Of a DNA stretch of 64,000 nt, positions 12,706-52,825 are shown piece after piece. Origin of the DNA: Iphione sp. A-MEVVRFRX5 (lineage: Eukaryota); NCBI GenBank assembly GCA_976226885.1, contig OZ320323.1:24242001-24306000 (forward strand), read 5' to 3'. The translations under genes and the position numbers were made by a program. The stretch's first letter is position 1, and each line of letters opens with the position of its first letter. The notes under the pieces were generated by a model. The model was given only the letters and a program-made list of their open reading frames with translations, made no database searches and was not told the origin of the DNA.

Positions 12706-12785
12706 CGATCTCGAATGCGGACGCGTCTACAATGCGGACGATTTGAAGTAGAACGGAGGGTGTCCGGAATCGAGAGAGTGTACTG
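12706..12785. mobile_element. Right-end fragment of the same MITE family as 21715-22380
   Basis: Near-identical to 22301-22380 (GATCTCGAATGCGGAC...GGGTGTCCGGAAT.GAGAGAGTGTACTG|TA). Confidence 0.75.
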
Positions 12786-13023
12786 TATAAACTATGTGTG
12801 GGCCAGTAAAGCACACCTAAACCTACACACTCTTTCCCCACACTCTGTTCTACCGTACTATAGTATATATGAAAAAAAAATGTTTACAACCAGCTTCATT
12901 TTTCACAATTTCAGTACACGGACTCTATCGAACCGGCGACTTCTGACAGTGTCACTATCTTGGCACAATAAAATGAACGGCTATGTGAAATAAAGGACAA
13001 GACAATACCGGGAACCGACTTAC

Positions 13024-13112
13024 CTTTGCTCTCGGTGCTACTGATCCAGTATTTTCCATGTTGTAAGGGGTTCCCATATAGTTCTTTTAGTCACTGACAG
13101 AGGGCAGCCAAA
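13024..13112. promoter_or_regulatory. Probable bidirectional promoter and non-coding first exon of the MFS gene (-), head-to-head with DXO (+)
   Basis: A strong - strand donor AAG|GTAAGT lies at 13023, and a matching acceptor ttccag| lies at 7435, 8 nt before the MFS ATG. The DXO ATG is at 13113. Confidence 0.6.
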
Positions 13113-31444: not shown

Positions 31445-31491
31445 ACCAACGTATTGTTACCATACTATCTGAAGGAGTATGCATCTGTAAA

Positions 31492-34086
31492 TTTGAGATC
31501 TAAGTGACACCACTGCTTCTTCTTCAAAAATGATGATATGTGGTGATATGACTACCTCCTCTTCTTCTGTCCTCTTCTCAGGGGACAGTATAGATATGAA
31601 GGTAGGGGCAGGCTCAAGGACTTGTAGGGGAGTAGAGTGAGAGTGTCCTTTTACCTGTCCAAATGATCTCACGGGATCTACCTGTTTCAGGTGTCAAAAT
31701 GATGTCCTCTTCTTTCTGGCTCTTCTAATAAAGTCTTTCTTGATGTATTAAGAACTGAGTCTTGATATTCTTATAAGTATTTTAGAGATAGTTTGCTTTG
31801 GTTAGGTGACAGATAAATATGCTCTTCCTGAGTCCTTCTTCTTTTAACTGAATGATGTTATCTCATAGAATATCTAAATGTTCAGTTCTTGTAGGTGTAT
31901 ATAAAAGCCAGTAAATTGATGCATTTAAACTGTAATATATTTATTGGAGAATAGCACACAAGGGGTGACTACCTCCCTTCTGACAGCAGTAATGTATATA
32001 CAGTGTGGCAGAGTCACCAAAGTCAATGTGATACACCTGTAGTTTAGGTAATATGTAGCCTAGCAGGGGAAATATAGTCTGTCATAAACCAGCACTTCAC
32101 CAAAATGTCCAGTAGTTTCAACCAATATTGCAATGGAAGTGGTAACAGCAGTTCAACCAGTTTGTCCAGCAGTTTCAATATGGCAACGGTCAATAATGGT
32201 GGCAAACAGAGTTTTCAGTAACATGCAAACTAAAGTGTAGTTTCTACCTTCAAAATGCTTGTCCTGAGTGTCAGGGGTCCTAGGCTGGCAAGGTTCCTGG
32301 GCTGGAGACTGGTCCTGGTGGTGTTGCTGGTCTGACTCCCTCTGCCTGACTGATTTGTTTGGGGAAAGGGGGCTGCTTATAAGCACAGCTGGTCTCCAGG
32401 GTCCCTGGGGTTTGTTTGGCTCCATAGCTACAATGGTTAAGGCCCCTCACTCATGCCTGGGAGCTGACAGGGGAAGGAGGGCTGAAGGTGAGTGCTGTAT
32501 ACTACCTTGAATTTCTTATTTTATTTTGCAAAATGTGTATATTATTTGACTGCAAATGTTGTTGAGGGACTGCAGGTAAGTGCTGTAAATGTTTTTAGTC
32601 CACCAAACTGTGTTTTTGAGACTTATTCTGGATGTAGGGCTGAGTATATTATTGTGCTGTATATATGGGTCCCCCTGGGCTATAGGCACTGGAACCTGAC
32701 CTAGGAGGTGTACTCTGGGCAATAGGTTTTAGAACCAAAACTGGTGTTTCATCCATGTTAAAGCCATGTTTACCAGGGTTGCATTAAGGTGAATAATTTG
32801 TCAAACTTTTCTAAAATGTTTTTCTGGTTGAAATGAGTATTGTTTTTGTCAGGCTGTATATGTGGGTTCCCCTAGGCTATAGGCACTGGGACCTGACCTG
32901 GAAGGTGTACCCTGGGCTATAGGTTTTAGAGCCCAAACTGGAATTTTATTCATGTTGAAGTCATGTTTGTTAAGGTTGTATTAAGGTGAATGTTTTGTCA
33001 AACCTTTTTAAAATGCTTTCTTGTTGAAATGAGTGTTGTGTACTGTGTATCTGGGTCAATCCCTGGGGCTACCCTAGGCTGGAAGCTTGCTAAAACCTGA
33101 AGTAGGGTTTCTCTCATATTAGAACCAGGTTTTACTCTTGTTGTAGTAAGGTGAATATTTTGCTTTGACCATCTAAAATATTCTTCATGTTGGTATTTAG
33201 AATAATAATGGTTTTATTTTTGCCTGGCTGTCAAGAAAGGAAACTAGTTGGTTTGGGGTCTAAATACAGAATTTGGTCTACACTTGTATTTCCCTCTTTT
33301 TGATGTATATGTATATATTCTGATCATGGTCATATGTGTAGTATTTAAGTTTTTGTACATTGCTTTCTTGACATATGTTCTTTACTATATTTAATGTAAA
33401 GGGAGGAAGGGTATTGTTTTGGGTCAGGCTTGGTGGACATGTCTGGGCATGCAAAACAGGAAGTCACTTCAGGGGACACAGGAAGTCACTTCAGGGAGGC
33501 AGGGTTTGAGGCTAGTTTGTATTGGTGACCAATCACAGGGGGTCTTGCTTGGGAGGTAGGGCCTGGGGCTTGCCTATTGTTCCTTCCAGCTGGGTCCACT
33601 GAGGTAAGCTCCTTAGCTGGTTGCAAAGGGTACCACTGTGAAAGCAGCTTTAGAAAGCTCCCTTTAGCTAGTTCCATTGAGGCAAACTACTTAACTGGCT
33701 GTTAAAGCTTTTCTCAATAGATGTAGCTCAAGGCCTGAATAGACCTGCATGCAAAGGTCTTTTATTCAAGGCTTTTTGTTTAAAGGGAATTAGGCTTTAC
33801 TTCTTTTATATTGAATACTCCATTTGCCATTGACATTTTACAAGAAATACTGAAACTCCTTCATAAAATACACTTTCATATATATCAACATTCACATTCA
33901 TCTATAACTGTACTTTGAAACTGCATATAAAATATATTCCTATTTATCTTTACACTGTGTTGCCACTATTGTAATTAATGTATATGTTTGAATCATTTCA
34001 TACATATCAATCATAGGTACATACATTATCATATGCAATGAAAACTGAATCAGACATGAATATTTCTGAGGGTCCATAATCTAACA
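31492..34086 (-). repeat. 3' LTR (2595 bp)
   Basis: Direct repeat of 50231-52825. No differences were found in the blocks compared by eye, and the ORF track is duplicated exactly. It contains a ~195-bp imperfect triplication (32657-33190) and tandem CAGGAAGT sites (33457-33490). Confidence 0.97.
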
Positions 34087-34620: not shown

Positions 34621-37323
34621 TTAAACATCGGTAAGAGTCTCTGTTGAGTCAGCATACTTAGAGCTGAAGATGGATATGGCTTTGTTCTGTTGACGCTGTG
34701 GTTTGACTGGAGTGATTGAGGCTGCTTCATCGATCACATCGGTAGTATCAAGTTTCGACAGTAGGTCATGATACGCAGGTGGGTAAGACATGACAGACTC
34801 CGGCTTCTTGTTGGTTGGATGGGCAGAGGTAGAAGGAGTAGGAGTTGGACAGATGGAAGAGTGAGACATCAGGGGAGGTAGGGCTGGATAAATACCATTT
34901 TGCAATTTATGGGCAAATCCTTGTTGGCCAAGGAGGATTGAATAATGGGCTAATTCTTTAACAGTTTGTTCAATAAGATGGATCTTGCGACCTCGCCATA
35001 GGGGTAGGACAATGGTGGGTGGAAGGGTAACTCTACGGGTGATCTGTCCATCAGTACGGTAAAGGGGGCTGGAGTACTCAAGATGAAGTGAGTAGGAGAA
35101 ACACTTCTTAACTAAATTAATAGAGGTTATCTTTGGGAGGTGGAATGAAGTAGAGGGTTCAGCGTTAGTCCTGAATTCATGGAGTAACAAAGTGGTGTGG
35201 TTACGTGAGGTGCCCAGCTTGAGTAAAACTTGGAATCCAGATAGAGATATCACTGGACCTGTTGCAGTTGATTTATGAGAACAATATTTAATTACAGCAC
35301 GCATGAATCTAAAGAGTGCCCAGATAATAAACATTACTGCAGCAACGGTGGAGATCGTGTCCAGATGAGTAACTGTAACAGTCAATGCTTGTGGAGTGGC
35401 AGTAGTCACCGATGGTTCTGTTGGTCCTAATATTATAGGTGCTGCATCTGATAACTGATTAAGAGTTATAAGGAACATTAATCTGTTTGTTTTAATGGAG
35501 AGATAAATGACAATGATAGTCAATATAATAGTCAGTGCAGAGTGAATGCTATTCCATATCCAAATAAATGGGGTGGCAATCTCATTGGCTTTGGTAGTTA
35601 GCCAAATTGGCCAATGTTTCATCTCAGCTTCACGTTTGATTGCTAGCTCTCTTGTTTTTGCGATATCCAGGGCCACAGATTTTAAATCTAGTCCTGTGTT
35701 TTCTGGAAGTACTTGTGACAGATTCAGGAGTGGAGACTCTGGTAGAGCTATGTTAAATAGGTAGGAGTTGTTATAAGTGGAAGTCGCGGTGAAGTCTGGG
35801 AGAGATAAGTTGAAGTAAGCTGCTACTGGAAGGTTAATTCCATGGAGTGGTACTTCTGCTTGTGACATACCACAGGAGGTAGTTGCTTCAACTTCATATG
35901 GTCCCACTGTAAGTGTACAGTTGCAGGGGAGCTTGTAGGTGCACAATGAGCAATCCAAGTTAGTTTTAATATTATCACATGTAGTATACACTAGATTAGG
36001 TCCAGCAGAGATTAAGAATGTATCATTTAGTGAGAACACAGATGGAGACATAGTTTTATTAGAGTGAACTGTAAAGGTACACTTTTCAGTTGCTAAATCA
36101 AATCTATCAAAGAAAGTGGTACTGGCACAAGTGCTAAGGGTCTTCTTATTAGTGGGTGGTAACTTCGAACATGAGAGGATATCTTTACCATGACATAGCG
36201 TCATGTCAGCTAAGGTTAGTTCAATGAAGGATTGTTGATCTGGGGCAATGGAGATGTAATCTGGCATACTTCTGTGTTGTGTATATCCATATGATATAGG
36301 CGTAGCAAATGGTGCTCTGAATGTATGAATTCTGTAAAAGTCATGTATGTCAGTGGTCTTGCCAATAGGTACGGATACATGCATGTATAAGTATCTCTCT
36401 GAATACATGAATTGGGTGACTGAATGTTCGTAATAAAAGGCTGGGTCCTGAACTAATATCTTATCATTACCTGTCAGTAAATTCTGTACTTTACGGAGTC
36501 CATACTTAACCTGATCTGGACTAACAAGTATACCAGGTAGTCGGCCAGCATGGAGATCATTCAATGCCAAACGGAAATGTAGGAAGCTATCTTTTATTCT
36601 GTGTAGTGCAGCGATCTTGAGAATCAGGGAATCAAGGTACACTTGTATGTCTAGGCTAAAATCAATGGCTTGTGACTGGTTGGTCACTGCAAATATAAGT
36701 TGTTTATTGAGTTCAGTAGTACGTCTAGAAAGTGCCAATATGGCTGCATCATGTGATCTCATTTGCTTTGATAGGGCCTGTACTGCGATGGAGGATGAGT
36801 TGGCGAGTGCAGATAGCTGTGTCTGCAAGCTAAGTACCGCAGAGGGGTTGACTGATGCTGCAACTGTGTCTATTCTCCGTGCAAGCATTCTGATGTCTTC
36901 CATGGTAGCTGTACCAAATAGATATTTAGATGCTTTACCTACAAAACCAAACCAAGATCTAGGTTTCCTACCTTGAGAATCCTTGGTGGGTTTTGAAAGA
37001 AGTGCAGTAAGATGTAAGTTTTCCTGTCCTACTTCATGAAATAATTTGACACACATGTCATGGGTGTTGTCGAGAAAAGATGTTAGTCGAAGACATGCGG
37101 CAGTATCCCTACAGGGAAGATTTACACTGAGCGGGGAAAGACTATAGGTTGCAGGAAAGGATTTGGGTCTGGGTGAGACAAATAATAGATCAACCTTCTT
37201 GCTGTTTGTCAGAAGTGGGGTAGGCAATTTCTCAAAATATACTCCCAAATTCTGCCTAAGGATAAAGGAGGACTGGGTAGGAGCAAAGAGTAAAAGAAGA
37301 ATAAGAAGAGTGATGCCCCTCAT
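34621..37323 (-). CDS. env: Envelope glycoprotein, class I fusion protein of the errantivirus env/baculovirus F type, 900 aa
   Basis: Signal peptide; furin site RKPR (36969-36958) followed by the fusion peptide SWFGFVGKASKYLFGTATMED; heptad region; Cys-rich ectodomain; TM segment. A strong acceptor (tttctccctttcatttattccag|) lies 6 nt before the ATG. Confidence 0.92.
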   Translation of the reverse strand: MRGITLLILLLLFAPTQSSFILRQNLGVYFEKLPTPLLTNSKKVDLLFVSPRPKSFPATYSLSPLSVNLPCRDTAACLRLTSFLDNTHDMCVKLFHEVGQENLHLTALLSKPTKDSQGRKPRSWFGFVGKASKYLFGTATMEDIRMLARRIDTVAASVNPSAVLSLQTQLSALANSSSIAVQALSKQMRSHDAAILALSRRTTELNKQLIFAVTNQSQAIDFSLDIQVYLDSLILKIAALHRIKDSFLHFRLALNDLHAGRLPGILVSPDQVKYGLRKVQNLLTGNDKILVQDPAFYYEHSVTQFMYSERYLYMHVSVPIGKTTDIHDFYRIHTFRAPFATPISYGYTQHRSMPDYISIAPDQQSFIELTLADMTLCHGKDILSCSKLPPTNKKTLSTCASTTFFDRFDLATEKCTFTVHSNKTMSPSVFSLNDTFLISAGPNLVYTTCDNIKTNLDCSLCTYKLPCNCTLTVGPYEVEATTSCGMSQAEVPLHGINLPVAAYFNLSLPDFTATSTYNNSYLFNIALPESPLLNLSQVLPENTGLDLKSVALDIAKTRELAIKREAEMKHWPIWLTTKANEIATPFIWIWNSIHSALTIILTIIVIYLSIKTNRLMFLITLNQLSDAAPIILGPTEPSVTTATPQALTVTVTHLDTISTVAAVMFIIWALFRFMRAVIKYCSHKSTATGPVISLSGFQVLLKLGTSRNHTTLLLHEFRTNAEPSTSFHLPKITSINLVKKCFSYSLHLEYSSPLYRTDGQITRRVTLPPTIVLPLWRGRKIHLIEQTVKELAHYSILLGQQGFAHKLQNGIYPALPPLMSHSSICPTPTPSTSAHPTNKKPESVMSYPPAYHDLLSKLDTTDVIDEAASITPVKPQRQQNKAISIFSSKYADSTETLTDV

Positions 37324-37638
37324 ATTGATCTGGAATAAATGAAAGGGAGAAATTGAAGAGTGCTTATGGATATATGGCTTCTCCGGTCCTTTTATTAATG
37401 TTATGACTGTAGGTATCTTGGTATTGAGAATTCTATATCTAGCTATAATATATTGCCATCATACATGGAGTATGGTGTCTATAAAGCGACTTGCACTGTA
37501 GAGATCATTTGAATAGTATGCTGATAATTATGTCTTTTTTTGTTGACTAACGTGAATAGACTGCAAGGGATAGTTATGCTTTGCTACTGATTATGGGAGA
37601 ATCATATAAATAACATAAGGTGGACATGAAAATGATAT

Positions 37639-37929
37639 TTATTTAGTGTTGCAAACTATAATATACATAATATCTTCTTCGTCATCGTCAGGAATCTCTA
37701 TTATTTCTATACTGTCTCTATTTGAAGTCATAATGGGTGCATTTTTGTCTGCAGCCTCCTTGTCATCTGACTCAGTAATGATAACAGGATTATCCTGTGT
37801 TCCTTCTCCCTCATGGCGCACCTGGCTGCGGAGAATGGGAGTGATATCAAAGTTGTCAAAGACATCATCATCCTCTTGTTCTCTGTCATCAATGGTCAGG
37901 TCACTGCACTCACTCCAGTCGCTGTCCAT
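37639..37929 (-). CDS. Accessory ORF B, 96-aa acidic protein with several SIM-like motifs
   Basis: Intact ORF with its own splice acceptor (cattctacag| at ~37946) 16 nt upstream of the ATG. Motifs DLTIDD, PVIITESDD and IEIIEIPDDDEED. Confidence 0.65.
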   Translation of the reverse strand: MDSDWSECSDLTIDDREQEDDDVFDNFDITPILRSQVRHEGEGTQDNPVIITESDDKEAADKNAPIMTSNRDSIEIIEIPDDDEEDIMYIIVCNTK

Positions 37930-39039
37930 GATGTACTGGTTTTAGCTGTAGAATGAGTGTAATGGGTGGATGGATAAGTGAATACTGCCAATTGGCAAAA
38001 AGGAAAAAAAACTATCTTTCTGTAAATCCAAATGTTTCATAGGAAAATATGCTTAAAGAGAGTCATAATTCATATAAAGTTGGTGGATAGTAATAAGATC
38101 ATAAGATTGTTGGCAATTATTAAAACTGCTGACAAGGTTGAACTGCTGGACAAGTTGTGGGTGGCTACAGGTGAATGAATTCCTGCTGCCTAGTGAAAGT
38201 GGCAAAGACAACCCTACTGTAGATCCAGTTGACAGATTGATAAGTGTGGGCATAGAACAACCACTTAACGTGGTGAACCTTCAAAATGCAGCTACAAGGT
38301 TGTATTCTATATTAAATGAGAGTTCCTGATCCGCTTTTTCCATCATACAATTGATAGTACTGTAGAGTGAACATGAGAGTGGCTATAGTCAGTTAAATAT
38401 TGCTGATCGGAATAGTGGCAGAATGCTCTTTATGGCATGGTTGCCAGGGTGGATAATACTGATTAAATGGAACCTTACAATGCTGCTATAGGGGCGCATC
38501 TTATATCAAATAAAAGGTCTTGATCTGCTGAACATGTCTGTACCCTTATGTAGTGTTTAGGATGCAAATTGTAGCGTGTAGAGGGATTTGAATATCACTG
38601 ATCGGAAAAGCGGTGGCTGATTTATGTGGGTTAATTGTCACAAACCAGATTTTCTTTAGGGCCAACATATAGCCAAGTATCAAACCTTAATATTGGTCGT
38701 AGAGGGTCATATTTTATATCAAAAGGAAACTCTTGGCCTGCTTATTACATTGCTGTCATTAACACCATGATATCATACAGATTGTCGGCGGTAGGAAGGG
38801 TTAAATATCGCTGATCGGTAAAAGCGGCAGTGTAATTTCCTATGTTCACCTGTGGTAAGTATAAAAAAATGGATAGGAGTACTACATGTGTATAAGGCTC
38901 AGAATGTAGCTATGTGGACGTATTAGATATCAAATTAAAGCTCTATATCTGCCTTTTACGTTGATGTGATCTGTGTGATTGTAAGTTGAGTAGTGTGGCC
39001 GGTACAGCAAGTAGAAGATCGCCGACCGGCAAAGCGGCA

Positions 39040-39250
39040 TCGGGCGTTCACACATTTTAGTTGTCGCTCAGGTAGGGGAGGCACTCAGTAGCATTCACAG
39101 CTTTGGATCGGGGCATATGTTTAGCTATAAAAGTGAGGAGTTTCAGTGGTCTGGCGTTATTCATTGGAGGACGTCATGCTGGAACCTAGGAGCGCCGAAA
39201 CAGAGGAGTCAGAGGAACTTAATTTCAAGTCAAACTTCGAAGGTATAGTT
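39040..39250 (+). promoter_or_regulatory. Antisense promoter module 1 (TATA, Inr-like, GAGGACGT, 5' splice donor)
   Basis: GCGTTCACACAT at ~39044, TATAAAA at 39126, GAGGACGT at 39167 and donor AG|GTATAG at 39243. Confidence 0.6.
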
Positions 39251-39614
39251 TGCAAACATATTTCTCATGTGTATGAATGTTGGAAGATGACCTATACCTC
39301 ACTATTGGCCGTAGAGAGTCATGTTTGATATCAAATGAAAGCTTGTAATGTGACCTTTCCTTTGGTACCATCAGTGTTCCTGTACGTTGGGTATTGTGGA
39401 TGCTACGGCGAGTAAAACATCGCCGATCGGTAAAGCGGCTAAGTGCGGGCTTAGTCATGTGAAATTGGATGGTCTCTCAGTGAATTTTCAAGTTTGGAGT
39501 GTGTCTATATTACATTATAGTACAGGGATAGTAGATTTCGGTTTTGTAAATGAGAAGGAGGTAATTTTGTCAGGTATAGGTTCGGGGGGGGGGGGGTTGC
39601 CGACGTGCTTAGTT

Positions 39615-39830
39615 GGGCGTTCACACATCCTGGCTACCATCGCTTGAGCGGGGAAGCAGGAAACGTTTGGACAGAGACATAATTAACAGCTTTTGCAGCT
39701 TTTTGTAATTTAGGCTATAAAAAGGGGTGATTTCTGAGTTTTAGCACTATTTCAACAGAGGACGTAATGATGGAATTAGGACTCCTACGGATTCTGCTTG
39801 GCCGATTGGCTTAGCTTTTATCAGGTATGT
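39615..39830 (+). promoter_or_regulatory. Antisense promoter module 2
   Basis: GCGTTCACACAT at ~39617, TATAAAA at 39716, GAGGACGT at 39758 and donor CAG|GTATGT at 39825. Confidence 0.6.
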
Positions 39831-40349
39831 GCGCATATATCATTTCTACATATGTGAGCGTTTTAAGGCTTCTATCACGATTATTTCTGATTATAATATA
39901 GTATTTTGCTACTGGAAGCGACACACAGTTTACACATGGTTATTCCATATACATAATATATATATGGAACTAGATGTATTGAAGTTTTAGAACGACGCTA
40001 CATGGGTGTATTTTATATCAAATGAAAGGTCTTTTTGCACTGAACATTGCTGGACTTTTACTTCTTATATAGGATGTGTATTTTGAACGTGTAGAGGGTT
40101 TTGAATGTTGCCGAGCGGAAAAGCGGCGAGATACTGACTTACAAAGAGAGGACTTGGTATACTGGGTCAGGAAATGTACCTATAGGGTTGTATCATATGG
40201 AAATTCCCGATCTGCCCATTCCAATGGTGGTATCAGTGTGACTGTAAATTGAGTATTGTGGACGTTACAGCGAGTGAAACATCGCCGATCGGTAAAATAG
40301 TGAAATACTGCAATATATAGTGGGCCTGCCGCAGTACTTAGACAGGGGT

Positions 40350-40613
40350 AGCGTTCACACATTTTAATTACTGCCGCTCTGGTGGGGAGGCACAACCCAT
40401 CTATTCTGGTGGATTCACATAGTGGCGTTCACGGCTTTTCCCCCCTTTAGCTATAAAGGTGAGCGATCTTTAGAGTTCTTAAGGTATTTTCCAAGAGGAC
40501 GTCATGTAGTGACCAGGATACAGGTTCATGGAGACGCTCCAAGATTGCCAGTTCTTAACTGCCTGAGACACGGGAACTAATGGAAGAATTCACTTGTAAT
40601 ACCTAAGGTATGT
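40350..40613 (+). promoter_or_regulatory. Antisense promoter module 3
   Basis: GCGTTCACACAT at ~40351, TATAAAG at 40452, GAGGACGT at 40495 and donor AAG|GTATGT at 40608. Confidence 0.6.
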
Positions 40614-41663
40614 GCGCTGATATGATTTCTGTTTGTGTTAGCGTTTCTGGAATCCTTTTAGGTTGGGTAAGAGTGACTACATGTACGTGAAACTCAGAAT
40701 GTCACAACAGGGGTGTATTTTATATCAAATTGAAGCTTGTGGTCCGTCCCTTCTGCTGGTGGTCTCAGTATGATCATATTGTGAATACTATGGTCGGGGC
40801 GGCATATCAAACATTTGCCGATATATATTTATTTTATTTATTTATTTATTTTTTTTGAGGGGGGGGGAATAGGTTCCAGGTTGGACAACAGTGGATATAT
40901 GAGACTTAAAACGCCGCTACCTGGATGTGTTACATATCAATTTAAAGCCCTTGATCTGCTGGTTTTACTGGTAATGTCGGTTTAATTATATTGTGAATAT
41001 TGTGTCGTACTCACCCATGTCAGGGTATGTCCGTCAGCATATTTCTCATGTTTGTGAGGGTTGGCCTACGGCCGCCTATCTAATATTGATATTGGTGCTA
41101 GAAAGCCATATATAATATCAGTGAAGGCTCCTGGTTTGCTTGTTTCAAGGTAATACCAGTTTTGTCCTAGATGCTGGATCAGTTTAAATATCACCGATAA
41201 GCAGAGTGGTTGAACGCAAGTTTGATATGTTGTAATTTTGGTTGGGTAAGGGTGATCATATGCATATGAAACTAAAAATGTAACTAAATGGACGTATATG
41301 TGTCAAATTGAAGCTCATTTTCTGACGTTTTGGGTGATATACTTGGATTGGTTGTGCCATAAATATTGTGGGTGCTGCAGTGAGTTAAATATTATAGGTT
41401 GGTAAAACATGAAAATGCAAGTGTACACAAGTGTGTCTGCTGGAAATGAAGGTAGATTCAGGATGTGTCTACATAGGTGTATTAGATATCAAAGGAAAGG
41501 TACATTTCTTTAGCTTTGACAAAGTAAGGAGACAGATGTATCTTCCATTTACAAATCTTTATAGAATCATTACTTGACATTGGTCTCATAAAAATAGTGT
41601 CCATCTGTTTAAAAATAAAAGAAGATAAATGTTCTAAAATTGGTTTTCAGATGAAATGTCCAT

Positions 41664-42209
41664 TTAGTCCCAAATTTCTTGTTCTTCGGGCTCTATCTTA
41701 GGCCTGTATCCCGCAAAGTTCAGCCTCAGTTGTACTTCATACATGCCGAAGTCAAATGAAAAGAAATATTGGGTATAATCCCAGACAGCACTTTGAGCTG
41801 CGGTCTTCAAACTCATGCCGCTCCTTGCATGCTGGAAGGTGAGTAGAATAATGGAGTCCCATGCGGGATAGAAGTGGGTGGGCAGGTCGGGCTCCTGCCC
41901 TTTCTCCATGTACGTGTCCACCAAACTAATAACCGTCTGGCGGACCAAATTGTCCTGAAGTTGGACAAAGTTTCCTCTCCATGAGGGGAGGATGTCCAGG
42001 TCCAATGCTAGGTAAACATCGAATGTGTGAGACAGGGCCTCCAGCATTCCCTTTCTTGCTTCAGTTGAAATCTTGGGGTGGCGGATCCCTGTGTTCTTTT
42101 TAAGTAGATACGTCATGAGACGCACCGTACAATCTTTGGTGGTTGGTGGTATGCCTCTGTCTAACTGTTTTCCTCGGCGGTGGGCCCTCTTCATGGCTTT
42201 GCAAGGCAT
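41664..42209 (-). CDS. Accessory ORF A, 181-aa protein of unknown function
   Basis: Intact, non-repetitive ORF whose ATG directly follows a splice acceptor (aacctttcag|ATG). Confidence 0.75.
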   Translation of the reverse strand: MPCKAMKRAHRRGKQLDRGIPPTTKDCTVRLMTYLLKKNTGIRHPKISTEARKGMLEALSHTFDVYLALDLDILPSWRGNFVQLQDNLVRQTVISLVDTYMEKGQEPDLPTHFYPAWDSIILLTFQHARSGMSLKTAAQSAVWDYTQYFFSFDFGMYEVQLRLNFAGYRPKIEPEEQEIWD

Positions 42210-43587: not shown

Positions 43588-46095
43588 CTATTTGTTTGCT
43601 TTCTTGCTTACGTTAGGAGATCTCATACGTTGGAGAAATTTCCAAAATCTTTTTGGCTTCTTAATCTCAGGTTCAGAAGTGTCAGACAGTTCATCATTCT
43701 CTTCATTATCTAATTGAGTTTGATCATGTTCTGTTAGAAGTACAGGTCTACGTGTTCTGCTGCGGAGGTTATATGCTGGTGCATCTGTCCTGGGAAGATC
43801 CTTTTGAGATCCGCTGCAAGAGTCCATGATTGGAGCAGTCTTCACAGGTTTGGCTTGGTGATCTTGTCTGAGTAACCATACGTTTTCATCTGATTGATGT
43901 TCTTGCTCTTTAGTTGACCCAATAGATGTATCTTTAGTAATTTCTTGCTCTGAAATATTTTCTTTAGAGAGGATTTGGGGTGAGGGTGTCACAGGACTCT
44001 CACTTACAGTTTCTTTGATAAGTCTGGCCAATGGCCCATCTTCATATTCCTCATGTACATTTTCTTCTGGCTTAGTTTCCTCTTTTGAATTTTCCTCTCT
44101 CAAAGAAATCAGATCATTATTGTCTTTAACAGGTGGATCATCAGGGTGTGAGTCAACAGTCACTGTATCCTCTGGATCTTCAGGACATCCCCCTTGACAG
44201 GCGTCTCCTAGTTCTTCTGCTTCATCCAGGACTGGAGAGGGTCTTTGTGGTGGTATATCCTCAGGCTCTTCTGGGATTGCATTTAGTGAGGAGGGAGGTT
44301 TATCTGTGAGGTGCTGTCTGCGAGATGAGATGGGTTTGTCTATGGAGGGTGAGCTGGGTGTCTCAAAACTGTCGGGGGGTAGATCTTCAGCCCTTATTTT
44401 CTCTAGATTTGAATTCTCATTTATCACTGGGGGTACTGAACCTGTTTTCTTTAATCTACTGATAGTTACAGATCTAGCAAGGTGCCGTTTTGTCTGTAAG
44501 CATTTTAGATACACTGTACACTCAGTTTGGAATCCTGTAATAACATAGGGTCCATGATACACTTTTCCTAGTTTTAGTTTGAGTGAGCTATCTTGTAGCC
44601 TGGGTACATATAGCCAAACAACATCACCAACCTTTAAGTCAGGTTTGTAGGTATGCTCATCATGTCTGTCTTTCATGTCTTGCGCAGCTTTATCAGAAGT
44701 TTCTAGGGCAGCTTTATGCGCTGTATGTTGTTGTTGCAAGTGTTGAGCAAATCGCTCTTCTACAGGCATAAGTTCATCATTAGGGACAGGGATAGAGTTC
44801 ATTTCTGGACGTCGAGGCTCATACCCATGTAGAAGTAGGTAAGGAGTTTGTCCAGTTCTGGTAGCTTTAGTAGTGTTTAGGGCAAAGCATATTGAAGGGA
44901 GGTAACAGTCCCAGTTATTCTGATATTTGCTAATATAATTCCTGAGAACTGTTAGGAGAGACCGATTTGCTCTCTCTACCAACCCTGAAGTTTGGGGGTG
45001 ACCTGCAGTGGCAAATTTCTGTTTAATTCCATTTTCTCTGCAATAACTTAGGAAGCGGTTTGAGATAAAAGCAGAGCCATTGTCAGAGACAATAGTATTG
45101 ACAATACCAAATCTGTAGACAATATGCTCCTTAAATTTTGATATGAGTGTGTCTGCTCTGAGATCTGGCTGTGCCCATGCAACCAGAAATCTACTATAAT
45201 AATCTACAACAGTAATAATATGCCTATTATCATCTTTTGTAGTGGGTAAGCGTTCAATAGCATCCATGTTAATAGTATGCCAAGGTGCAGGAGCAGGGTC
45301 CCTAAGGGTGAGTGGGGGTCGGATAGGTCTTGTCATTCTTTTAGTCTGGTTACATTTGATGCATGTAGCACAATAGTCATGAACATCTTCACTCATCCCA
45401 GGCCAGAATAATGTCTCTCTCATTTTAGTTAACATTTTGACTGGACCTAGGTGACCAGCATGTACTGCATCATGATTTTGTTGGAGAAATTTCTCTCTCA
45501 GATGAACGGGAACAACTAATCGCACATTGGTTTGAGCATTCGGCCCTGTAGTTGAGGACATTTTAAATAATATATTTTCATAAAGGAAATAGTCTTCCTC
45601 CCTTAAAAGAATCTGTCTAGCCATTTTATCATCATCTGGGAGTCTACCAAATTTGATAAAGGCCACAGTTTGTGCACAGAATGTGTCCTGCTTTTGAGCT
45701 TCTAAAAGATCATTTAGAGGGACATGGGATGATTTTAGATGGTTTTCGGCACCTGAGTGAAGGACAAATTGTCTCTCTCTTCTCTTACGGTGGTTAGGGC
45801 CTCTTTTGGTGAGGAGGGGATCTGATGGCCTAGGTTGAGGAGTAGTTGGGGTGTCTCTAACATGGACTACATTGGTAGGAATAGGGGAAGAGTTCAAGTC
45901 TTCTGGTGATTGTTCAGTAGGACCTGTCCATATCTGATCTTTTTCTGGGGGAACATCTAATCTGGATAAAGTATCCGGGACTACATTTAGGTTGCCTGCT
46001 ACATGTTCAATGGTATAATCAAATCTTTGAAGAAATTCCATCCATCTAACAACACGACTATCTTTATGTTCAAGAGTTTTGCTAACTAGAATGTG
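43588..46095 (-). CDS. pol: pol 3' part: RNase H end/connection, integrase (HHCC, DDE, GPY) and a long acidic tail
   Basis: HDAVHAGH...CATCIKC zinc finger; WHTINMD...VVDYYSRF...SDNGSAF...SGLVERANR catalytic core; YHGPY. It is separated from the upstream pol by a 1-nt frameshift at T5 46096-46100. Confidence 0.95.
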   Translation of the reverse strand, partial: HILVSKTLEHKDSRVVRWMEFLQRFDYTIEHVAGNLNVVPDTLSRLDVPPEKDQIWTGPTEQSPEDLNSSPIPTNVVHVRDTPTTPQPRPSDPLLTKRGPNHRKRRERQFVLHSGAENHLKSSHVPLNDLLEAQKQDTFCAQTVAFIKFGRLPDDDKMARQILLREEDYFLYENILFKMSSTTGPNAQTNVRLVVPVHLREKFLQQNHDAVHAGHLGPVKMLTKMRETLFWPGMSEDVHDYCATCIKCNQTKRMTRPIRPPLTLRDPAPAPWHTINMDAIERLPTTKDDNRHIITVVDYYSRFLVAWAQPDLRADTLISKFKEHIVYRFGIVNTIVSDNGSAFISNRFLSYCRENGIKQKFATAGHPQTSGLVERANRSLLTVLRNYISKYQNNWDCYLPSICFALNTTKATRTGQTPYLLLHGYEPRRPEMNSIPVPNDELMPVEERFAQHLQQQHTAHKAALETSDKAAQDMKDRHDEHTYKPDLKVGDVVWLYVPRLQDSSLKLKLGKVYHGPYVITGFQTECTVYLKCLQTKRHLARSVTISRLKKTGSVPPVINENSNLEKIRAEDLPPDSFETPSSPSIDKPISSRRQHLTDKPPSSLNAIPEEPEDIPPQRPSPVLDEAEELGDACQGGCPEDPEDTVTVDSHPDDPPVKDNNDLISLREENSKEETKPEENVHEEYEDGPLARLIKETVSESPVTPSPQILSKENISEQEITKDTSIGSTKEQEHQSDENVWLLRQDHQAKPVKTAPIMDSCSGSQKDLPRTDAPAYNLRSRTRRPVLLTEHDQTQLDNEENDELSDTSEPEIKKPKRFWKFLQRMRSPNVSKKANK

Positions 46096-48859
46096 TTTTT
46101 AGAGGGTTATGGTCAGTTTGAATGAGGAATTTAGCTCCCTCTAGGTAGACACGCCAATGCTTCACTGCATAGAATATGGCTGCCATTTCCTTGTCAGTAG
46201 TAGAATAGTTTAATTGAGCACCTTGAAATGCCTTTGCCCAAAAAGCAACAGGTCTCAAGTTTCCCTGTTTGTCTATTTGTGAGAGACTAGCTCCCATTCC
46301 ATAATTACTTGCATCAGTGGCTAAATAGAATTCTTTGTTAAAGTCTGGGTATAGCAAAAGTTGATCATCTAATAATGCCTTTTTGAGAGTTTGAAATGCT
46401 TCTTCTTGTTCTGGTCCCCAGAAAAATTTCTTGTTACTTTTCTTAGTCAAATCATATAAGGGTTTTGCCTTTAGACCATAGTTAGGAATAAATTTCCTGT
46501 AATATCCAGTCATTCCCAAAAATCTTCTAACTTGCCTAACTGTAGCTGGGGTTTTTAGATCCTTGATTTTGCCAACATTGTCTGGGGAGGGTTTAAGTCC
46601 TTCAGTGGTTAGAATATGTCCTAAAAATTTGACTTCTGATCTACCTATGTCACATTTAGATGGTTTTAACTTTAGGCCTGCTTGGATCAGTCTGTCTAAA
46701 ACTTGTTCCAGATCAGCCATATGTCTCTCAAATGTAGGGGAGAAGACAACTATATCATCCATGTATGCTAAACAAATCTTATATTTCAATCCAGAAAGTA
46801 CCATGTCAACAATACTCTGGAATGAGGCTGGTGAGTTTTTGAGTCCCATAGGCATAGTTTTATACCTGAATTTTCCTGAAGGGGTTAGGAAAGCTGTCTT
46901 GTCTCTATCTTGATCACGAATAGGAATTTGATGGAAACCCATCTCTAAATCCATAACTGAGAGAAATTTAGGTTTGTTATGTCCTATGGCATCTATTGTA
47001 TCATCAACTCTAGGGATAGTAAACATTTGGGTAACAGTTTGGGAGTTTAGATTTCTGTAGTCAACAACTAATCTAAATTTTCCATTAGGTTTAGGAACTA
47101 AGAAGGCAGGACTGGCCCATGGACCATCTCCGGCTTCTTCAAGTATTCCCTTGTCTCTCTGATCATAAACTATTTTATCTAGCTCTTCCCTCATATTCGG
47201 TGACATGCGGAAAGGTTGGGCTTGAGTGGGATATGCATCTGGGACTAATTCAATACGGTGCTCAACTAAATGTGTCCTACCAATATCTCCTTTCAATACA
47301 AATGCATCCCTTTTAGATTGGAGTAAATTCATACAAATTTCTTTCTGTTCTTCAGTGAAGTTTGATTGAGACAGGTCAATAGGGATATCAGAAGGGGTTG
47401 AATGTTGGATAGAGTTAACTTCAGTGTTAGTCTTAAAGGTGTAGGGAATACCTTTAGTAAATGTACCAATTCTTAGTCCTTTCCTAAGTTGTTGGGGTTT
47501 GTCAGAATAGTTTAGAATGGAGACGGGGATATGATTTCCTGAAACTTTCACAAGTGCTTCTCTGTTTGAGACTATTTTTCTTGGGGTGGACTTAAGTGTG
47601 TCCTCAAATATTCCTTCATATGAGTCTAGGCACTGACCATCGGACAATATTTGGGCCCACACAAAGGTTTCAGAGAGGGGTTCTAAGAGTATGTCATCAG
47701 GTAGGGCTGTTGGGTAATGGGCAGGAGGTCTAGGACCAAATGACAGGTTCATGGAGAACTGGTGTAGGAAGTTTCTCCCAAGAATGATATCATAGGCTAG
47801 TCCCTCAATGACATGTAATAAGACAGGATATTTATGGTCATCAATGGGAATATCAAACTGAGCAATGTATGAGGCCTTAGTGGTTGTTCCATTGGCCATA
47901 ACACACTCAGCTTTAGAAGGGAGTATGTTCATGTCAAACCCATTTTCCTGCAATTGATTGAAAACCTTAGAACTAATGCAGCAACCTTCAGCTCCTGTGT
48001 CAATAAGCGCAACAACAGATACCTTTCCCAAATCAAGTTTGGTACAACAGGCATTTGTTAATGAATGGTGAATAGTTTCAGTTTTGCCTTCTGAGATTTG
48101 TTGGGTCCAGGACATATAGACACATTTTTCCTTTTGTGAAGTAGTGTATGAGTTAGCTTTAGAAATAATGCCAAAAATTTCATTAGTTTTTGAAGGGAAG
48201 TTAAAGTCTTGATAAATTTGGTGGTCATGAATTTCATCGGGGAGGATCAAGTGTTCACCATTCAAAGGACAACATGGAATTCTGTTACACCTAGGTTTGA
48301 GTACCTTCCTAGTTATCTCACTACTCAGTGATTTAACCTTGTCATGTACACAGATTTCCATGTATTCATAGTCACACTTGCAGTTACCATGTTTATGGTC
48401 AATAATTGCCATTCTTAAGGCCATAAGAATAGCATATTCAAGGCTGTTGACACAGAGTCCTTCTGCAACTTGACAGTCACACTGAGGTGTAATGTTACCC
48501 TTCTCATCAGTTTTAACAACACATATACAATGATTTGGGCAATGTGAGCAATCAAACCTTAAATGTCTATTGGCAGGGATATTTGCGTCCTGCTTGTCCT
48601 GTACCTTAGTCTTGGACTTTTTGCGTGTAGGGCGGCTGGGGCAAAGAGGATGTGATTTAATTGTATGATATTTCAAACTCTTAACCCAACTAAGTCTTTC
48701 CTCAGGCTGGGGAGGTAGAGGTTTTGTTAGAATTAGAACTGTCAGTTTCTCATCAGGATCAGTTTTAGAAAAATCATTATCCTTGGGCTTGCTTTGGTCC
48801 TTATTCTGAGATCCAGGTAGAGACTCCCAATACTTGGGCTCATTGGAAGTCCTTCCTAG
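46082..48859 (-). CDS. pol: pol 5' part: transframe Cys-rich region, aspartic protease, RT and RNase H
   Basis: The frame is open from the slippery site at 48859. Protease LIDTGA (DTG 48001-47993) and IILGRNFL; RT WASPAFLV..KFRLVVDYR and YMDD (46765-46754); RNase H TDASNYG..YSTTDKE..TDHNPL. Confidence 0.96.
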   Translation of the reverse strand, partial: LGRTSNEPKYWESLPGSQNKDQSKPKDNDFSKTDPDEKLTVLILTKPLPPQPEERLSWVKSLKYHTIKSHPLCPSRPTRKKSKTKVQDKQDANIPANRHLRFDCSHCPNHCICVVKTDEKGNITPQCDCQVAEGLCVNSLEYAILMALRMAIIDHKHGNCKCDYEYMEICVHDKVKSLSSEITRKVLKPRCNRIPCCPLNGEHLILPDEIHDHQIYQDFNFPSKTNEIFGIISKANSYTTSQKEKCVYMSWTQQISEGKTETIHHSLTNACCTKLDLGKVSVVALIDTGAEGCCISSKVFNQLQENGFDMNILPSKAECVMANGTTTKASYIAQFDIPIDDHKYPVLLHVIEGLAYDIILGRNFLHQFSMNLSFGPRPPAHYPTALPDDILLEPLSETFVWAQILSDGQCLDSYEGIFEDTLKSTPRKIVSNREALVKVSGNHIPVSILNYSDKPQQLRKGLRIGTFTKGIPYTFKTNTEVNSIQHSTPSDIPIDLSQSNFTEEQKEICMNLLQSKRDAFVLKGDIGRTHLVEHRIELVPDAYPTQAQPFRMSPNMREELDKIVYDQRDKGILEEAGDGPWASPAFLVPKPNGKFRLVVDYRNLNSQTVTQMFTIPRVDDTIDAIGHNKPKFLSVMDLEMGFHQIPIRDQDRDKTAFLTPSGKFRYKTMPMGLKNSPASFQSIVDMVLSGLKYKICLAYMDDIVVFSPTFERHMADLEQVLDRLIQAGLKLKPSKCDIGRSEVKFLGHILTTEGLKPSPDNVGKIKDLKTPATVRQVRRFLGMTGYYRKFIPNYGLKAKPLYDLTKKSNKKFFWGPEQEEAFQTLKKALLDDQLLLYPDFNKEFYLATDASNYGMGASLSQIDKQGNLRPVAFWAKAFQGAQLNYSTTDKEMAAIFYAVKHWRVYLEGAKFLIQTDHNPLKTHSS

Positions 48860-48865
48860 TTTCCC
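48822..48865 (-). other. -1 programmed ribosomal frameshift signal
   Basis: G GGA AAC heptamer (48865-48859) directly before the gag TAG, a 7-nt spacer, then a 10-bp stem GACUUCCAAU/AUUGGGAGUC. The -1 frame is open into pol. Confidence 0.88.
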
Positions 48866-50187
48866 GAATTTGGTCTAATTGCCTGGGAAAGAGCCTCGAT
48901 ACTTCTTTGCATCTGGCTCATATTCACTCTCATAATGCGCATTTGTTCTTCCAAAGGGTTGGGGTAGGATTGCTGGTTAGAATGATCTGGATTTTGGTAA
49001 TAAGTTGGACCATAATTTTGAGGGGGATAGTTATTCCTAGGCTGTCTGGGGAGAGGAGTAGGTCTAGTAGGTTGTCCCCTGGGAGGTGGAACTGTGGGAT
49101 CTCCCATTGCTCTCCTTTTTGAATAACAGTCTCTCTCATAATGTCCCTTCTTTTGACAGTAATAACACTGAATATCAGGTCTAGGAGGTGGGTTATTAGA
49201 AGTTCTCCTGGGTGGACGTTTATTTGTTTCCCTTTGCTCAGAAGTGGAGGGAGTGGGCCCTGCTTGTTTAACCTGAAAGGCCATGATTTTTCCGGGGAGA
49301 TCTCTAGAAAGTTTCTCTGAGAGGTCCTCTAACATTTTCTCTACATTAACTATACTGGCTGCATTTTTCACTGTTCCTTGCAAACTTTTCCATGCTCTTC
49401 TAGCATCAGTAAGAGAGTCATTGAAAGAAGGAACTGTTCTATGTTGCATTGATGCTCTTACTTCTGGTAGAATATTTTCCATAAAAATCCTACCCACTTT
49501 ATCATCGTCCTCTATCCCAGCTAATGAGCAGGCTTTCAAAAGTCTTTCCCCAAAGACTTGGGGTGGCTCACCTGATTTCTGTTTGGTATTTTTCATTTTC
49601 TCAACTAATTCATAGCTAGATGGGCCCTTCTCCTTTAGGATATAAGATTTGAGATCGTCCCAGTTTGGGTGATAGTTGATATGGATATACATATGTCTAG
49701 GGAAAAAGCTCTTAGATTTAGAATGGGCCTTTTCCTCCCAATCATCCCCATATAGTTCTTCCATGTATCTCTCATATTCATGTATCCAGTCAGCTACAGC
49801 ATAAGGGTCAGAGGGGAAATCACTAGGTCTTTTAGGAGCGCATGTAAGTTTCATAGCAATTTGATCAACCAAATCGCTCCTTGCCTCAGCTATACCAGCA
49901 TTAGCACCAGGTTGGCCTCCCTGTGCCATTACCTCATTCGCACCCCCAGGCATGATCAAGACAAGGTTAGGACTTACTGGTTCTGTAGTTGGTTGTCTTG
50001 GAGCCGGCTGGGTAGATCTAGGAGCACTGGTTGTAGTCTGGCTTTTTGAAGACTTGTTCCCTCTGGGTTCCCTGGGTTTTCTTGAAGGTAGGGGAGAAGT
50101 AGCCCTCTGGGATGACTTGGATGGACCTCTCAGGCTTGACTTGGACTTGTCCTGGGATGTTTTACTCCGGGTGATCCTATCTGCCAT
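48856..50187 (-). CDS. gag: gag, 443 aa, with a CCHC zinc knuckle
   Basis: Retrotransposon capsid-like region (WIHEYERY...W..LK..IL..; QKSGE....FGERL) and CYYCQKKGHYERDC. It starts 25 nt after the PBS. Confidence 0.95.
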   Translation of the reverse strand: MADRITRSKTSQDKSKSSLRGPSKSSQRATSPLPSRKPREPRGNKSSKSQTTTSAPRSTQPAPRQPTTEPVSPNLVLIMPGGANEVMAQGGQPGANAGIAEARSDLVDQIAMKLTCAPKRPSDFPSDPYAVADWIHEYERYMEELYGDDWEEKAHSKSKSFFPRHMYIHINYHPNWDDLKSYILKEKGPSSYELVEKMKNTKQKSGEPPQVFGERLLKACSLAGIEDDDKVGRIFMENILPEVRASMQHRTVPSFNDSLTDARRAWKSLQGTVKNAASIVNVEKMLEDLSEKLSRDLPGKIMAFQVKQAGPTPSTSEQRETNKRPPRRTSNNPPPRPDIQCYYCQKKGHYERDCYSKRRAMGDPTVPPPRGQPTRPTPLPRQPRNNYPPQNYGPTYYQNPDHSNQQSYPNPLEEQMRIMRVNMSQMQRSIEALSQAIRPNSGN

Positions 50188-50211: not shown

Positions 50212-50229
50212 TACCCGGGTTCTCCACCA
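50212..50229 (-). other. Primer-binding site complementary to a tRNA-Ala 3' end
   Basis: TGGTGGAGAACCCGGGTA, 1 nt from the 5' LTR. Its complement ends GUUCUCC-A-CCA, with the U70 and A73 expected of tRNA-Ala. Confidence 0.8.
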
Positions 50230-50230
50230 G

Positions 50231-52825
50231 TTTGAGATCTAAGTGACACCACTGCTTCTTCTTCAAAAATGATGATATGTGGTGATATGACTACCTCCTC
50301 TTCTTCTGTCCTCTTCTCAGGGGACAGTATAGATATGAAGGTAGGGGCAGGCTCAAGGACTTGTAGGGGAGTAGAGTGAGAGTGTCCTTTTACCTGTCCA
50401 AATGATCTCACGGGATCTACCTGTTTCAGGTGTCAAAATGATGTCCTCTTCTTTCTGGCTCTTCTAATAAAGTCTTTCTTGATGTATTAAGAACTGAGTC
50501 TTGATATTCTTATAAGTATTTTAGAGATAGTTTGCTTTGGTTAGGTGACAGATAAATATGCTCTTCCTGAGTCCTTCTTCTTTTAACTGAATGATGTTAT
50601 CTCATAGAATATCTAAATGTTCAGTTCTTGTAGGTGTATATAAAAGCCAGTAAATTGATGCATTTAAACTGTAATATATTTATTGGAGAATAGCACACAA
50701 GGGGTGACTACCTCCCTTCTGACAGCAGTAATGTATATACAGTGTGGCAGAGTCACCAAAGTCAATGTGATACACCTGTAGTTTAGGTAATATGTAGCCT
50801 AGCAGGGGAAATATAGTCTGTCATAAACCAGCACTTCACCAAAATGTCCAGTAGTTTCAACCAATATTGCAATGGAAGTGGTAACAGCAGTTCAACCAGT
50901 TTGTCCAGCAGTTTCAATATGGCAACGGTCAATAATGGTGGCAAACAGAGTTTTCAGTAACATGCAAACTAAAGTGTAGTTTCTACCTTCAAAATGCTTG
51001 TCCTGAGTGTCAGGGGTCCTAGGCTGGCAAGGTTCCTGGGCTGGAGACTGGTCCTGGTGGTGTTGCTGGTCTGACTCCCTCTGCCTGACTGATTTGTTTG
51101 GGGAAAGGGGGCTGCTTATAAGCACAGCTGGTCTCCAGGGTCCCTGGGGTTTGTTTGGCTCCATAGCTACAATGGTTAAGGCCCCTCACTCATGCCTGGG
51201 AGCTGACAGGGGAAGGAGGGCTGAAGGTGAGTGCTGTATACTACCTTGAATTTCTTATTTTATTTTGCAAAATGTGTATATTATTTGACTGCAAATGTTG
51301 TTGAGGGACTGCAGGTAAGTGCTGTAAATGTTTTTAGTCCACCAAACTGTGTTTTTGAGACTTATTCTGGATGTAGGGCTGAGTATATTATTGTGCTGTA
51401 TATATGGGTCCCCCTGGGCTATAGGCACTGGAACCTGACCTAGGAGGTGTACTCTGGGCAATAGGTTTTAGAACCAAAACTGGTGTTTCATCCATGTTAA
51501 AGCCATGTTTACCAGGGTTGCATTAAGGTGAATAATTTGTCAAACTTTTCTAAAATGTTTTTCTGGTTGAAATGAGTATTGTTTTTGTCAGGCTGTATAT
51601 GTGGGTTCCCCTAGGCTATAGGCACTGGGACCTGACCTGGAAGGTGTACCCTGGGCTATAGGTTTTAGAGCCCAAACTGGAATTTTATTCATGTTGAAGT
51701 CATGTTTGTTAAGGTTGTATTAAGGTGAATGTTTTGTCAAACCTTTTTAAAATGCTTTCTTGTTGAAATGAGTGTTGTGTACTGTGTATCTGGGTCAATC
51801 CCTGGGGCTACCCTAGGCTGGAAGCTTGCTAAAACCTGAAGTAGGGTTTCTCTCATATTAGAACCAGGTTTTACTCTTGTTGTAGTAAGGTGAATATTTT
51901 GCTTTGACCATCTAAAATATTCTTCATGTTGGTATTTAGAATAATAATGGTTTTATTTTTGCCTGGCTGTCAAGAAAGGAAACTAGTTGGTTTGGGGTCT
52001 AAATACAGAATTTGGTCTACACTTGTATTTCCCTCTTTTTGATGTATATGTATATATTCTGATCATGGTCATATGTGTAGTATTTAAGTTTTTGTACATT
52101 GCTTTCTTGACATATGTTCTTTACTATATTTAATGTAAAGGGAGGAAGGGTATTGTTTTGGGTCAGGCTTGGTGGACATGTCTGGGCATGCAAAACAGGA
52201 AGTCACTTCAGGGGACACAGGAAGTCACTTCAGGGAGGCAGGGTTTGAGGCTAGTTTGTATTGGTGACCAATCACAGGGGGTCTTGCTTGGGAGGTAGGG
52301 CCTGGGGCTTGCCTATTGTTCCTTCCAGCTGGGTCCACTGAGGTAAGCTCCTTAGCTGGTTGCAAAGGGTACCACTGTGAAAGCAGCTTTAGAAAGCTCC
52401 CTTTAGCTAGTTCCATTGAGGCAAACTACTTAACTGGCTGTTAAAGCTTTTCTCAATAGATGTAGCTCAAGGCCTGAATAGACCTGCATGCAAAGGTCTT
52501 TTATTCAAGGCTTTTTGTTTAAAGGGAATTAGGCTTTACTTCTTTTATATTGAATACTCCATTTGCCATTGACATTTTACAAGAAATACTGAAACTCCTT
52601 CATAAAATACACTTTCATATATATCAACATTCACATTCATCTATAACTGTACTTTGAAACTGCATATAAAATATATTCCTATTTATCTTTACACTGTGTT
52701 GCCACTATTGTAATTAATGTATATGTTTGAATCATTTCATACATATCAATCATAGGTACATACATTATCATATGCAATGAAAACTGAATCAGACATGAAT
52801 ATTTCTGAGGGTCCATAATCTAACA
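50231..52825 (-). repeat. 5' LTR (2595 bp)
   Basis: Direct repeat of 31492-34086. It begins TGTTAG on the - strand and is followed by the PBS. Confidence 0.97.

Follow-up and report, generated by a model that had tools for sequence, protein, structure and literature searches.

An env-bearing Ty3/Gypsy element encodes a candidate acidic accessory protein with one main SUMO-interacting-type motif between pol and env

Introduction

The Cer1 element of C. elegans produces the nuclear accessory protein CERV from a spliced mRNA (PMC10309623), and Drosophila elements of the MDG1 group encode sORF2 and sORF1, the second a protein of about 110 aa that is described as the product of a short, separately terminated transcript and as residing in a subnuclear compartment (PMC11952523). 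Errantiviruses with an F-type env have been surveyed across metazoans by Chary and Hayashi, who capped the pol-env gap at 1000 nt and the distance between the LTRs at 14 kb (PMC13524379). The element analysed here shares gag, pol, an F-type env, LTRs and a tRNA primer binding site (PBS) with these errantiviruses but is unlike those surveyed in its 6.3-kb pol-env spacer, its two orphan ORFs, its repeat array and its total of 21.3 kb.

Little is settled about the ways in which the retrotransposons of animals withstand silencing that depends on piRNAs and SUMO. In Drosophila, piRNA-guided silencing depends on SUMO (10.1101/533091), and in the literature extracts examined the transposon-encoded anti-silencing proteins are plant ones. 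Captured Ulp1 domains link plant Mutator-like elements to SUMO (PMC13317346), and many viruses carry proteins with putative SUMO-interacting motifs (SIMs); section 13 of the same review describes the SIM as loosely defined, a core of four residues of which three or more are hydrophobic (V, L or I above all), with acidic flanks (PMC12751080). Among the literature matches listed, mostly titles and the openings of abstracts, there was none on an LTR retrotransposon whose accessory protein bears a SIM. Here we analyse a 64,000-nucleotide stretch of Iphione sp. DNA (the window), in which an initial annotation had picked out a small reading frame, ORF B, as apparently coding for a decoy with several SIMs that titrates or redirects SUMO.

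Results

A recently inserted LTR retroelement with a long pol-env spacer

A full-length LTR retroelement of 21.3 kb in total was found on the minus strand at 31492-52825, and its features are listed in Table 1. The LTRs are identical and the element is bounded by a 4-bp TAAA target duplication, from which we conclude that the insertion is recent. The gag gene, the PR-RT-RNase H-IN order and the F-type env that define the env-bearing Ty3/Gypsy class are all present, as are paired LTRs, a PBS (typed against an Ala 12-mer entered in supplement 1 of PMC13524379) and the target duplication, whereas an uninterrupted pol is not found in the present copy. Judged by these sequence features, the element is an env-bearing Ty3/Gypsy element, errantivirus-like and recently inserted. 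In spite of the identical LTRs, the frame of pol shifts within RNase H, near 46082-46098, where close Pol relatives are continuous; this is either a fresh mutation or an error of assembly. An acceptor-like site lies 6 nt ahead of the env ATG.

Table 1. Features of the element, its pol-env spacer and ORF B, in window coordinates
Feature	Position	Strand	Remarks
5' LTR	50231..52825	-	2595 bp; 0 mismatches to 3' LTR
PBS, tRNA-Ala type	50214..50229	-	1 mismatch to Ala 12-mer, compared by eye
gag, 443 aa	48856..50187	-	CCHC-like knuckle just below Pfam cut-off
pol (PR-RT-RNase H-IN)	43588..48874	-	Two frames; Ty3/Gypsy domain order (Pfam)
ORF A, 181-aa orphan, basic N-terminus	41664..42209	-	CAG directly ahead of ATG
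Degenerate array, non-coding, CpG-rich	38300..41500	+	Units ~200 bp apart
Three promoter-like modules	about 39044-39250, 39617-39830, 40351-40610	+	Antisense to element
Splice-acceptor-like site, pyrimidine tract + CAG	37946..37971	-	Ends 16 nt ahead of ORF B ATG
ORF B, candidate acidic accessory protein	37639..37929	-	96 aa, ~11 kDa, net charge -23
SDLTIDD, residues 9-15	37885..37905	-	Fails every SIM rule tried
PVIITESDD, residues 48-56, weaker SIM-like core	37762..37788	-	With CK2-type site; fits loose rules alone
Best SIM-type motif IEIIEIPDDDEED, residues 74-86	37672..37710	-	psi-x-psi-psi + psi-psi-x-psi, acidic tail; not SIM-a/b/r
DIMYIIV, residues 86-92, C-terminal hydrophobic core	37654..37674	-	Loose SIM, LIR core or D-x-x-aromatic possible
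AATAAA, possible poly(A) signal	37638..37643	-	Overlaps ORF B stop codon
env, 900 aa, F-type	34621..37323	-	Baculo_F E 4.2e-06, above curated cut-off
3' LTR	31492..34086	-	2595 bp

The closest Pol relatives, all of them protein records without DNA context, are P0005, at 73% identity, and P0019, P0021, P0025, P0026, P0030 and P0031, at 55-58%. By eye, the integrase tail (43588-44400, minus strand) ends in an acidic and then a basic stretch, without the conserved C-terminal domain that is present in P0005, P0019 and P0030. No locus was found in viral or metagenome contigs with an env query, and alignment of the integrase region likewise placed none in viral contigs. That alignment did yield 36 loci from metagenomes and 16 from genomes of prokaryotes, none of them above 39% identity and most of them short or prokaryotic.

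The CpG observed/expected ratio is 0.02 in the LTR (2 CpG), 0.18-0.19 in gag and pol, and 0.40 and 0.59 in the two flanks. The element thus has the look of one shaped by methylation pressure, which would supply a motive and carries no link to ORF B. The LTRs are very long and nearly free of CpG, with an internal 197-bp duplication, and the leader before gag would measure 2.3 kb, with 22 ATGs, should the transcript begin close to the TATAAAA at 52549. Rfam gave zero matches at E 1 or better over 31400-53000, and no tRNA genes were found within the window. Pieces of host genes for an MFS transporter (3318-4280, minus strand), a RAI1/DXO-like nuclease (13098-13649, plus strand) and a G-patch and ankyrin protein (26756-27880, minus strand) are seen in the flanking DNA. 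A dispersed repeat family, probably a small transposon, occurs there at 12705-12790, 21737-21822 and 22300-22385.

ORF B has the features of a separately expressed gene

The spacer of 6.3 kb between pol and env holds ORF A (181 aa), the repeat array and ORF B, which sits immediately upstream of env with a gap of 315 nt between its end and env. The initial annotation had described ORF B as a highly acidic, probably disordered protein of 96 aa, and its length and acidity were borne out: the frame has that length on the minus strand, all four of the strings quoted from it are found in its translation, and Asp and Glu account for 30 of the 96 residues (31%, net charge -23). A charge-hydropathy comparison puts it on the disordered side (H 0.41 against a boundary of 0.50). 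A single-sequence AlphaFold model, which as a prediction made with no alignment is weak evidence, had a mean pLDDT of 45.7 and drew the hydrophobic cores as strands.

The length of ORF B is unremarkable: when the spacer was shuffled by dinucleotides, an ATG-initiated ORF of at least 96 aa turned up in 191 of 1000 trials. A content of at least 30% Asp plus Glu was reached by none of 2228 chance ORFs (mean 6%, maximum 19%), and among 83 host-flank ORFs a single one attained 28%. First codon positions are biased (G 0.41, A 0.39, C 0.12, T 0.08), and the codons for Asp and Glu are evenly split (GAC 10, GAT 9, GAG 6, GAA 5). We detected no internal DNA repeat in ORF B (best 21/36 nt); an origin from a simple triplet repeat was rejected, as the synonymous codons are mixed and no such repeat is found.

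A second acceptor-like candidate in front of ORF B, in addition to that in Table 1, ends at 37985. As background, acceptor-like sites lie within 20 nt of 11 of 130 spacer ATGs, and of 50 of the 1311 ATGs along the entire minus strand. The filter used is crude: 12 of 382 sense-strand AGs get through it, as do 11 of 384 on the opposite strand. An in-frame stop codon lies between the acceptor and the ATG, so ORF B was rejected as the terminal exon of a longer protein assembled by splicing; the stop indicates a stand-alone protein.

No Pfam family matched ORF B, and with two Cys and one His in 96 aa it does not have the make-up of a RING. No RING, NLS, targeting domain or catalytic domain is evident in it, no psi-K-x-E site is present, and transmembrane and basic segments are absent. 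A Rev-like export function was rejected, as its seven basic residues form no cluster. We consider it very probable, on these sequence features, that ORF B is a real accessory gene of the element, and it looks as though it would be expressed separately.

One core of ORF B fits a SIM consensus

The four strings had been read as tandem SIMs of the RNF4 type. We found that the consensus given for them, [V/I]-x-[V/I]-[V/I] or its reverse, is matched by one of the four, in which IEII and IIEI (residues 74-79) make up one overlapping site, and that none of the four fits SIM-a, SIM-b or SIM-r, so a count of four SIMs and an RNF4-type array are not supported. A looser SIM pattern passes PVIITE, and DIMYIIV passes only the loosest rule. 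What stands of the proposed SIM character is one convincing acid-flanked core at 74-79, while SDLTIDD fails all the rules applied and PVIITE and DIMYIIV satisfy loose ones only. For the SIM-a/b/r patterns, taken as printed in PMC5825156, there were 0 matches in the whole of ORF B, and 15% of shuffles give one.

When the residues of ORF B were shuffled (n=20000), 55% of the shuffles yielded at least one consensus-type core, and two or more loose cores came up in 15%. ORF B shows a mild enrichment of adjacent hydrophobic pairs (11 against 6.8, P 0.03), and clusters with three of four residues hydrophobic are not enriched over shuffles (3 against 2.6, P 0.55). Under a loose rule in the manner of the review (at least three of four residues hydrophobic, with an acidic or phospho flank), which was set after the sequence had been seen, three acid-flanked cores are found in ORF B, at 48, 74 and 87, spaced by 26 and 13 residues. 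Three loose cores occur anywhere in 4.5% of shuffles and within 45 residues in 343 of 20000 (1.7%), and they were seen in 0 of 46 acidic 96-aa control windows; a single acid-flanked V/I/L core was present in 3 of 91 acidic 60-aa segments of the comparison proteins. Such triplets also occur 29 times among 26 of 120 Pol-type proteins, and several examples lie in or near folded Pol domains.

Ile and Val make up 17 of the 26 hydrophobic residues of ORF B, an excess over Gag, Pol and Env (318/897, 35%; p 0.002) and over the acidic controls (537/1254, 43%; p 0.017). Of the features compared, this choice of residues discriminates best. Richness in Ile and Val fits beta-strand motifs better than activation domains, so the bias speaks more for strands of the SIM type than for acidic activation. 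Part of the Ile excess may come from the A-rich, C-poor first codon positions.

Among the stop-free stretches of at least 40 aa in the six frames of the window (n=675), three hold three cores within 45 residues, and these are ORF B and an ATG-less frame at each LTR end, the same sequence twice. The LTR-end frames, at 50214-50432 and 31460-31693 on the minus strand, each have three acid-flanked I/V cores. It follows that this strand of the element can yield such strings without an evident gene; the LTR-end frame is either a second SIM-like peptide or the outcome of a purine-rich strand that gives such strings without a gene. An LTR ORF of 90 aa (50892-51164) has a weak donor-like site at 50986 in phase with an AAG acceptor-like site at 50360 that leads into the LTR-end frame, a phase match that is expected one time in three by chance. 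A calcineurin site of the PxIxIT pattern was rejected by eye in ORF B, as PVIITE is without the fifth-position Ile.

Relatives and structural neighbours of ORF B

A word-index search among proteins of similar length found no relative of ORF B. When 1.84 billion proteins were scanned with HMMER, a single match was returned, P0121 (E 2.8e-06); this was rejected as a homologue, being one protein on a 948-bp contig that matched through a PVITT-type tandem repeat. The repeat of P0121 precedes a hydrophobic, membrane-like segment and looks like the stalk of a membrane protein, which indicates that PVI-type cores among acidic residues also occur outside any SUMO context. A PDB sequence search returned one row at E 1.8, which is not meaningful. 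The two ESM Atlas neighbours listed for ORF B are both ZCCHC7 clusters (score 0.75, recognition 1222), sub-threshold on a scale on which shuffled proteins reach at least 0.8 one third of the time. ZCCHC7 is named as a polySUMO2 receptor (10.1101/2021.01.20.427433), and we treat the likeness as a lead only, one that arose independently of the initial annotation and does not amount to a test. Prediction of a complex of ORF A with ORF B gave a score of 0.00 and no answer, which is not evidence either way.

ORF A and the spacer array

The CAG-ATG of ORF A fails the acceptor filter. Its GC3 is 0.58, against 0.31-0.37 in gag, pol and env, and this departure from the core genes of the element suggests capture. 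A word-index search confined to proteins of similar length gave 10 candidates, none at E 1 or better, and no PDB sequence match, usable ESM Atlas match or Pfam family was found. The structural model was poor (pLDDT 42.9) and gave no fold match (best Z 4.6, Foldseek E above 1); negative outcomes of this kind exclude nothing. Residues 25-125 resemble, by eye, what we take to be an H2B-type histone fold, a likeness without support from the sequence or structure searches.

The array has a CpG observed/expected ratio of 0.74 inside a CpG-poor element. A ATATCAAATGAAAG-like motif occurs 8 times in the array; the window as a whole has 9 copies, where 1.2 would be expected. The copies are often 194-213 bp apart, and the motif is paired with a CCGATCGGTAAAGCGGC-like one. 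Within the promoter-like modules the order is GCGTTCACACAT, a GCTATAAA box (TATA-box-like), GAGGACGT and then an AG/GTA donor-like site; no reading frame shared by the modules was seen by eye, and no exact match was found in viral contigs. Antisense transcripts that run in the direction of ORF A and pol could start from these modules. The ATG of a 40-aa ORF at 41482-41604 on the minus strand directly follows a strong pyrimidine tract and CAG, and this ORF is a possible third small accessory gene.

Discussion

Drawing on sequence, we tentatively read ORF B as a probably disordered accessory protein with one main SIM, by which it may bind SUMO weakly, and it is with the same reserve that we name SUMO as its main partner. 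A short mRNA of its own, spliced and terminating ahead of env, would give rise to ORF B as an unfolded protein of 11 kDa that could enter the nucleus by diffusion. Residues 74-79 and the acidic tail would then bind the SIM groove of SUMO, with the cores at 48-51 and 87-92 contributing weak avidity, and ORF B might serve as a competitor of the SUMO-dependent repressors that target the element, or as a bridge to them, which is the most speculative step. Because single SIMs bind weakly and ORF B has no catalytic part, we favour local action, as an adaptor or a competitor, over a sink that works throughout the cell. We think true poly-SUMO binding through several SIMs unlikely from the motifs seen, and an anti-silencing effect, with the decoy role that had been proposed, is distinctly doubtful. 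A wider version, in which the pol-env spacer is a counter-silencing cassette and the element a 'complex', retrovirus-like Gypsy element of animals, is very speculative: ORF B would be a multivalent SUMO binder without an enzyme, perhaps joined by a second SIM-like peptide from the LTR end, and ORF A would target it to the CpG-rich array, the two jointly disabling SUMO-dependent repression locally as an animal, SUMO-based counterpart of VANC.

The reading has to be weighed against the view that ORF B is no functional gene of the element at all, and is instead a captured fragment of a host exon or a purine-rich stretch that is open by chance. The word search, the full HMMER scan, Pfam and PDB gave no credible homologue, an ORF of equal length arises in 191 of the 1000 shuffles, one host-flank ORF comes to 28% Asp plus Glu, and the spacer is compositionally patchy. 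Fast-evolving disordered viral proteins are commonly without detectable homologues, however, and chance or capture would have to bring together the composition, the codon-position bias, the mixed synonymous codons, the acceptor-like site and AATAAA, so we regard this view as unlikely. The main functional rival, which we also judge unlikely, is that ORF B mimics a histone H2A-H2B chaperone, its acidic chain and D-x-x-aromatic cap-anchors loosening or handling nucleosomes on the DNA of the element, like EBV BKRF4. Size and charge are like those of the acidic domains of BKRF4 and APLF, and three of the four aromatic residues have Asp at -3 (DSDW, DDVF and DIMY), a spacing identical to that of D81/W84 in BKRF4 (PMC9477414) and of E473/Y476 in APLF (PMC6101569); however, three D-x-x-aromatic motifs are found in 8% of shuffles (P 0.08), the Pro of the BKRF4 DWP motif is missing from ORF B, and the excess of Ile and Val is left unexplained.

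It is improbable that ORF B is the acidic activation part of a VANC-like, self-specific transactivator encoded by the element, which a DNA-binding partner, either ORF A or a host factor, would bring to the LTR or the spacer array. L, F, W, Y and M, the residues preferred in activation domains of the acidic kind, amount to only 9 of the 26 hydrophobic residues here; the in-frame stop between acceptor and ATG counts against a spliced fusion to a DNA-binding domain, and no such domain is recognised in ORF A. On the other side, ORF B is acidic and probably disordered with an aromatic patch (DVFDNF), the basic orphan ORF A and the non-coding motif array adjoin it, and VANC proteins are described as acting on the tandem repeats of their own elements (PMC5735166). 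Least probable of these readings, and in our view hardly credible, is that the Y-x-x-V near the C-terminus, with acidic residues in front of it, lets ORF B bind ATG8/LC3 and so shield the particles of the element from autophagy. The LIR pattern is W/F/Y-x-x-L/I/V after acidic residues, and ORF B does have one such core, YIIV, behind an acidic run, but a LIR core turns up in 58% of shuffles and would account for 4 of the 96 residues. The binding of LIRs and SIMs is reported to be structurally alike (PMC12751080).

If weak SUMO binding by ORF B holds true, a 96-aa SUMO-binding antagonist would offer a direct and cheap test of an arms race and a possible probe of SUMO-dependent heterochromatin. 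Even without the SUMO link, an env-bearing Gypsy element with a long pol-env spacer and several orphan genes exists; such long-spacer elements fall outside the size limits of the recent metazoan survey (PMC13524379), by which they are missed by design.

Like ORF B, CERV, sORF1 and sORF2 are small extra proteins beyond the gag, pol and env of animal Ty3/Gypsy elements. ORF B is unlike them in its position between pol and env, in its strong acidity and in being without a transmembrane or basic segment; the general searches gave no sequence link to any of the three, which are otherwise set apart by description. Hydrophobic I/V cores that adjoin acidic runs, in a chain that in ORF B is probably disordered, are common to RNF4, ZCCHC7, HSV ICP0, KSHV K-bZIP, EBV BGLF4 and ORF B. 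ORF B differs from RNF4 in having one strict core in place of four adjacent SIMs, and from RNF4 and the viral SIM proteins in having no RING, kinase or other effector domain and in being known from sequence alone. The acidic domains of EBV BKRF4 and APLF are, as is ORF B, short and acidic with D/E-x-x-aromatic motifs, and disordered, as ORF B is predicted to be, whereas ORF B has no DWP proline, a motif count not above chance (P 0.08) and a preponderance of Ile-rich cores.

There is a parallel in layout with VANC and Kaonashi (a VANC that carries Ulp1) and the VANDAL elements of Arabidopsis, in which extra transposon genes lie beside a non-coding repeat array, as they do here. These are plant DNA transposons, with proteins that bind DNA and with a protease domain as the link to SUMO, and ORF B has neither; yet VANC/Kaonashi and the tentative reading of ORF B as a SUMO binder would both tie a transposon to the SUMO pathway.
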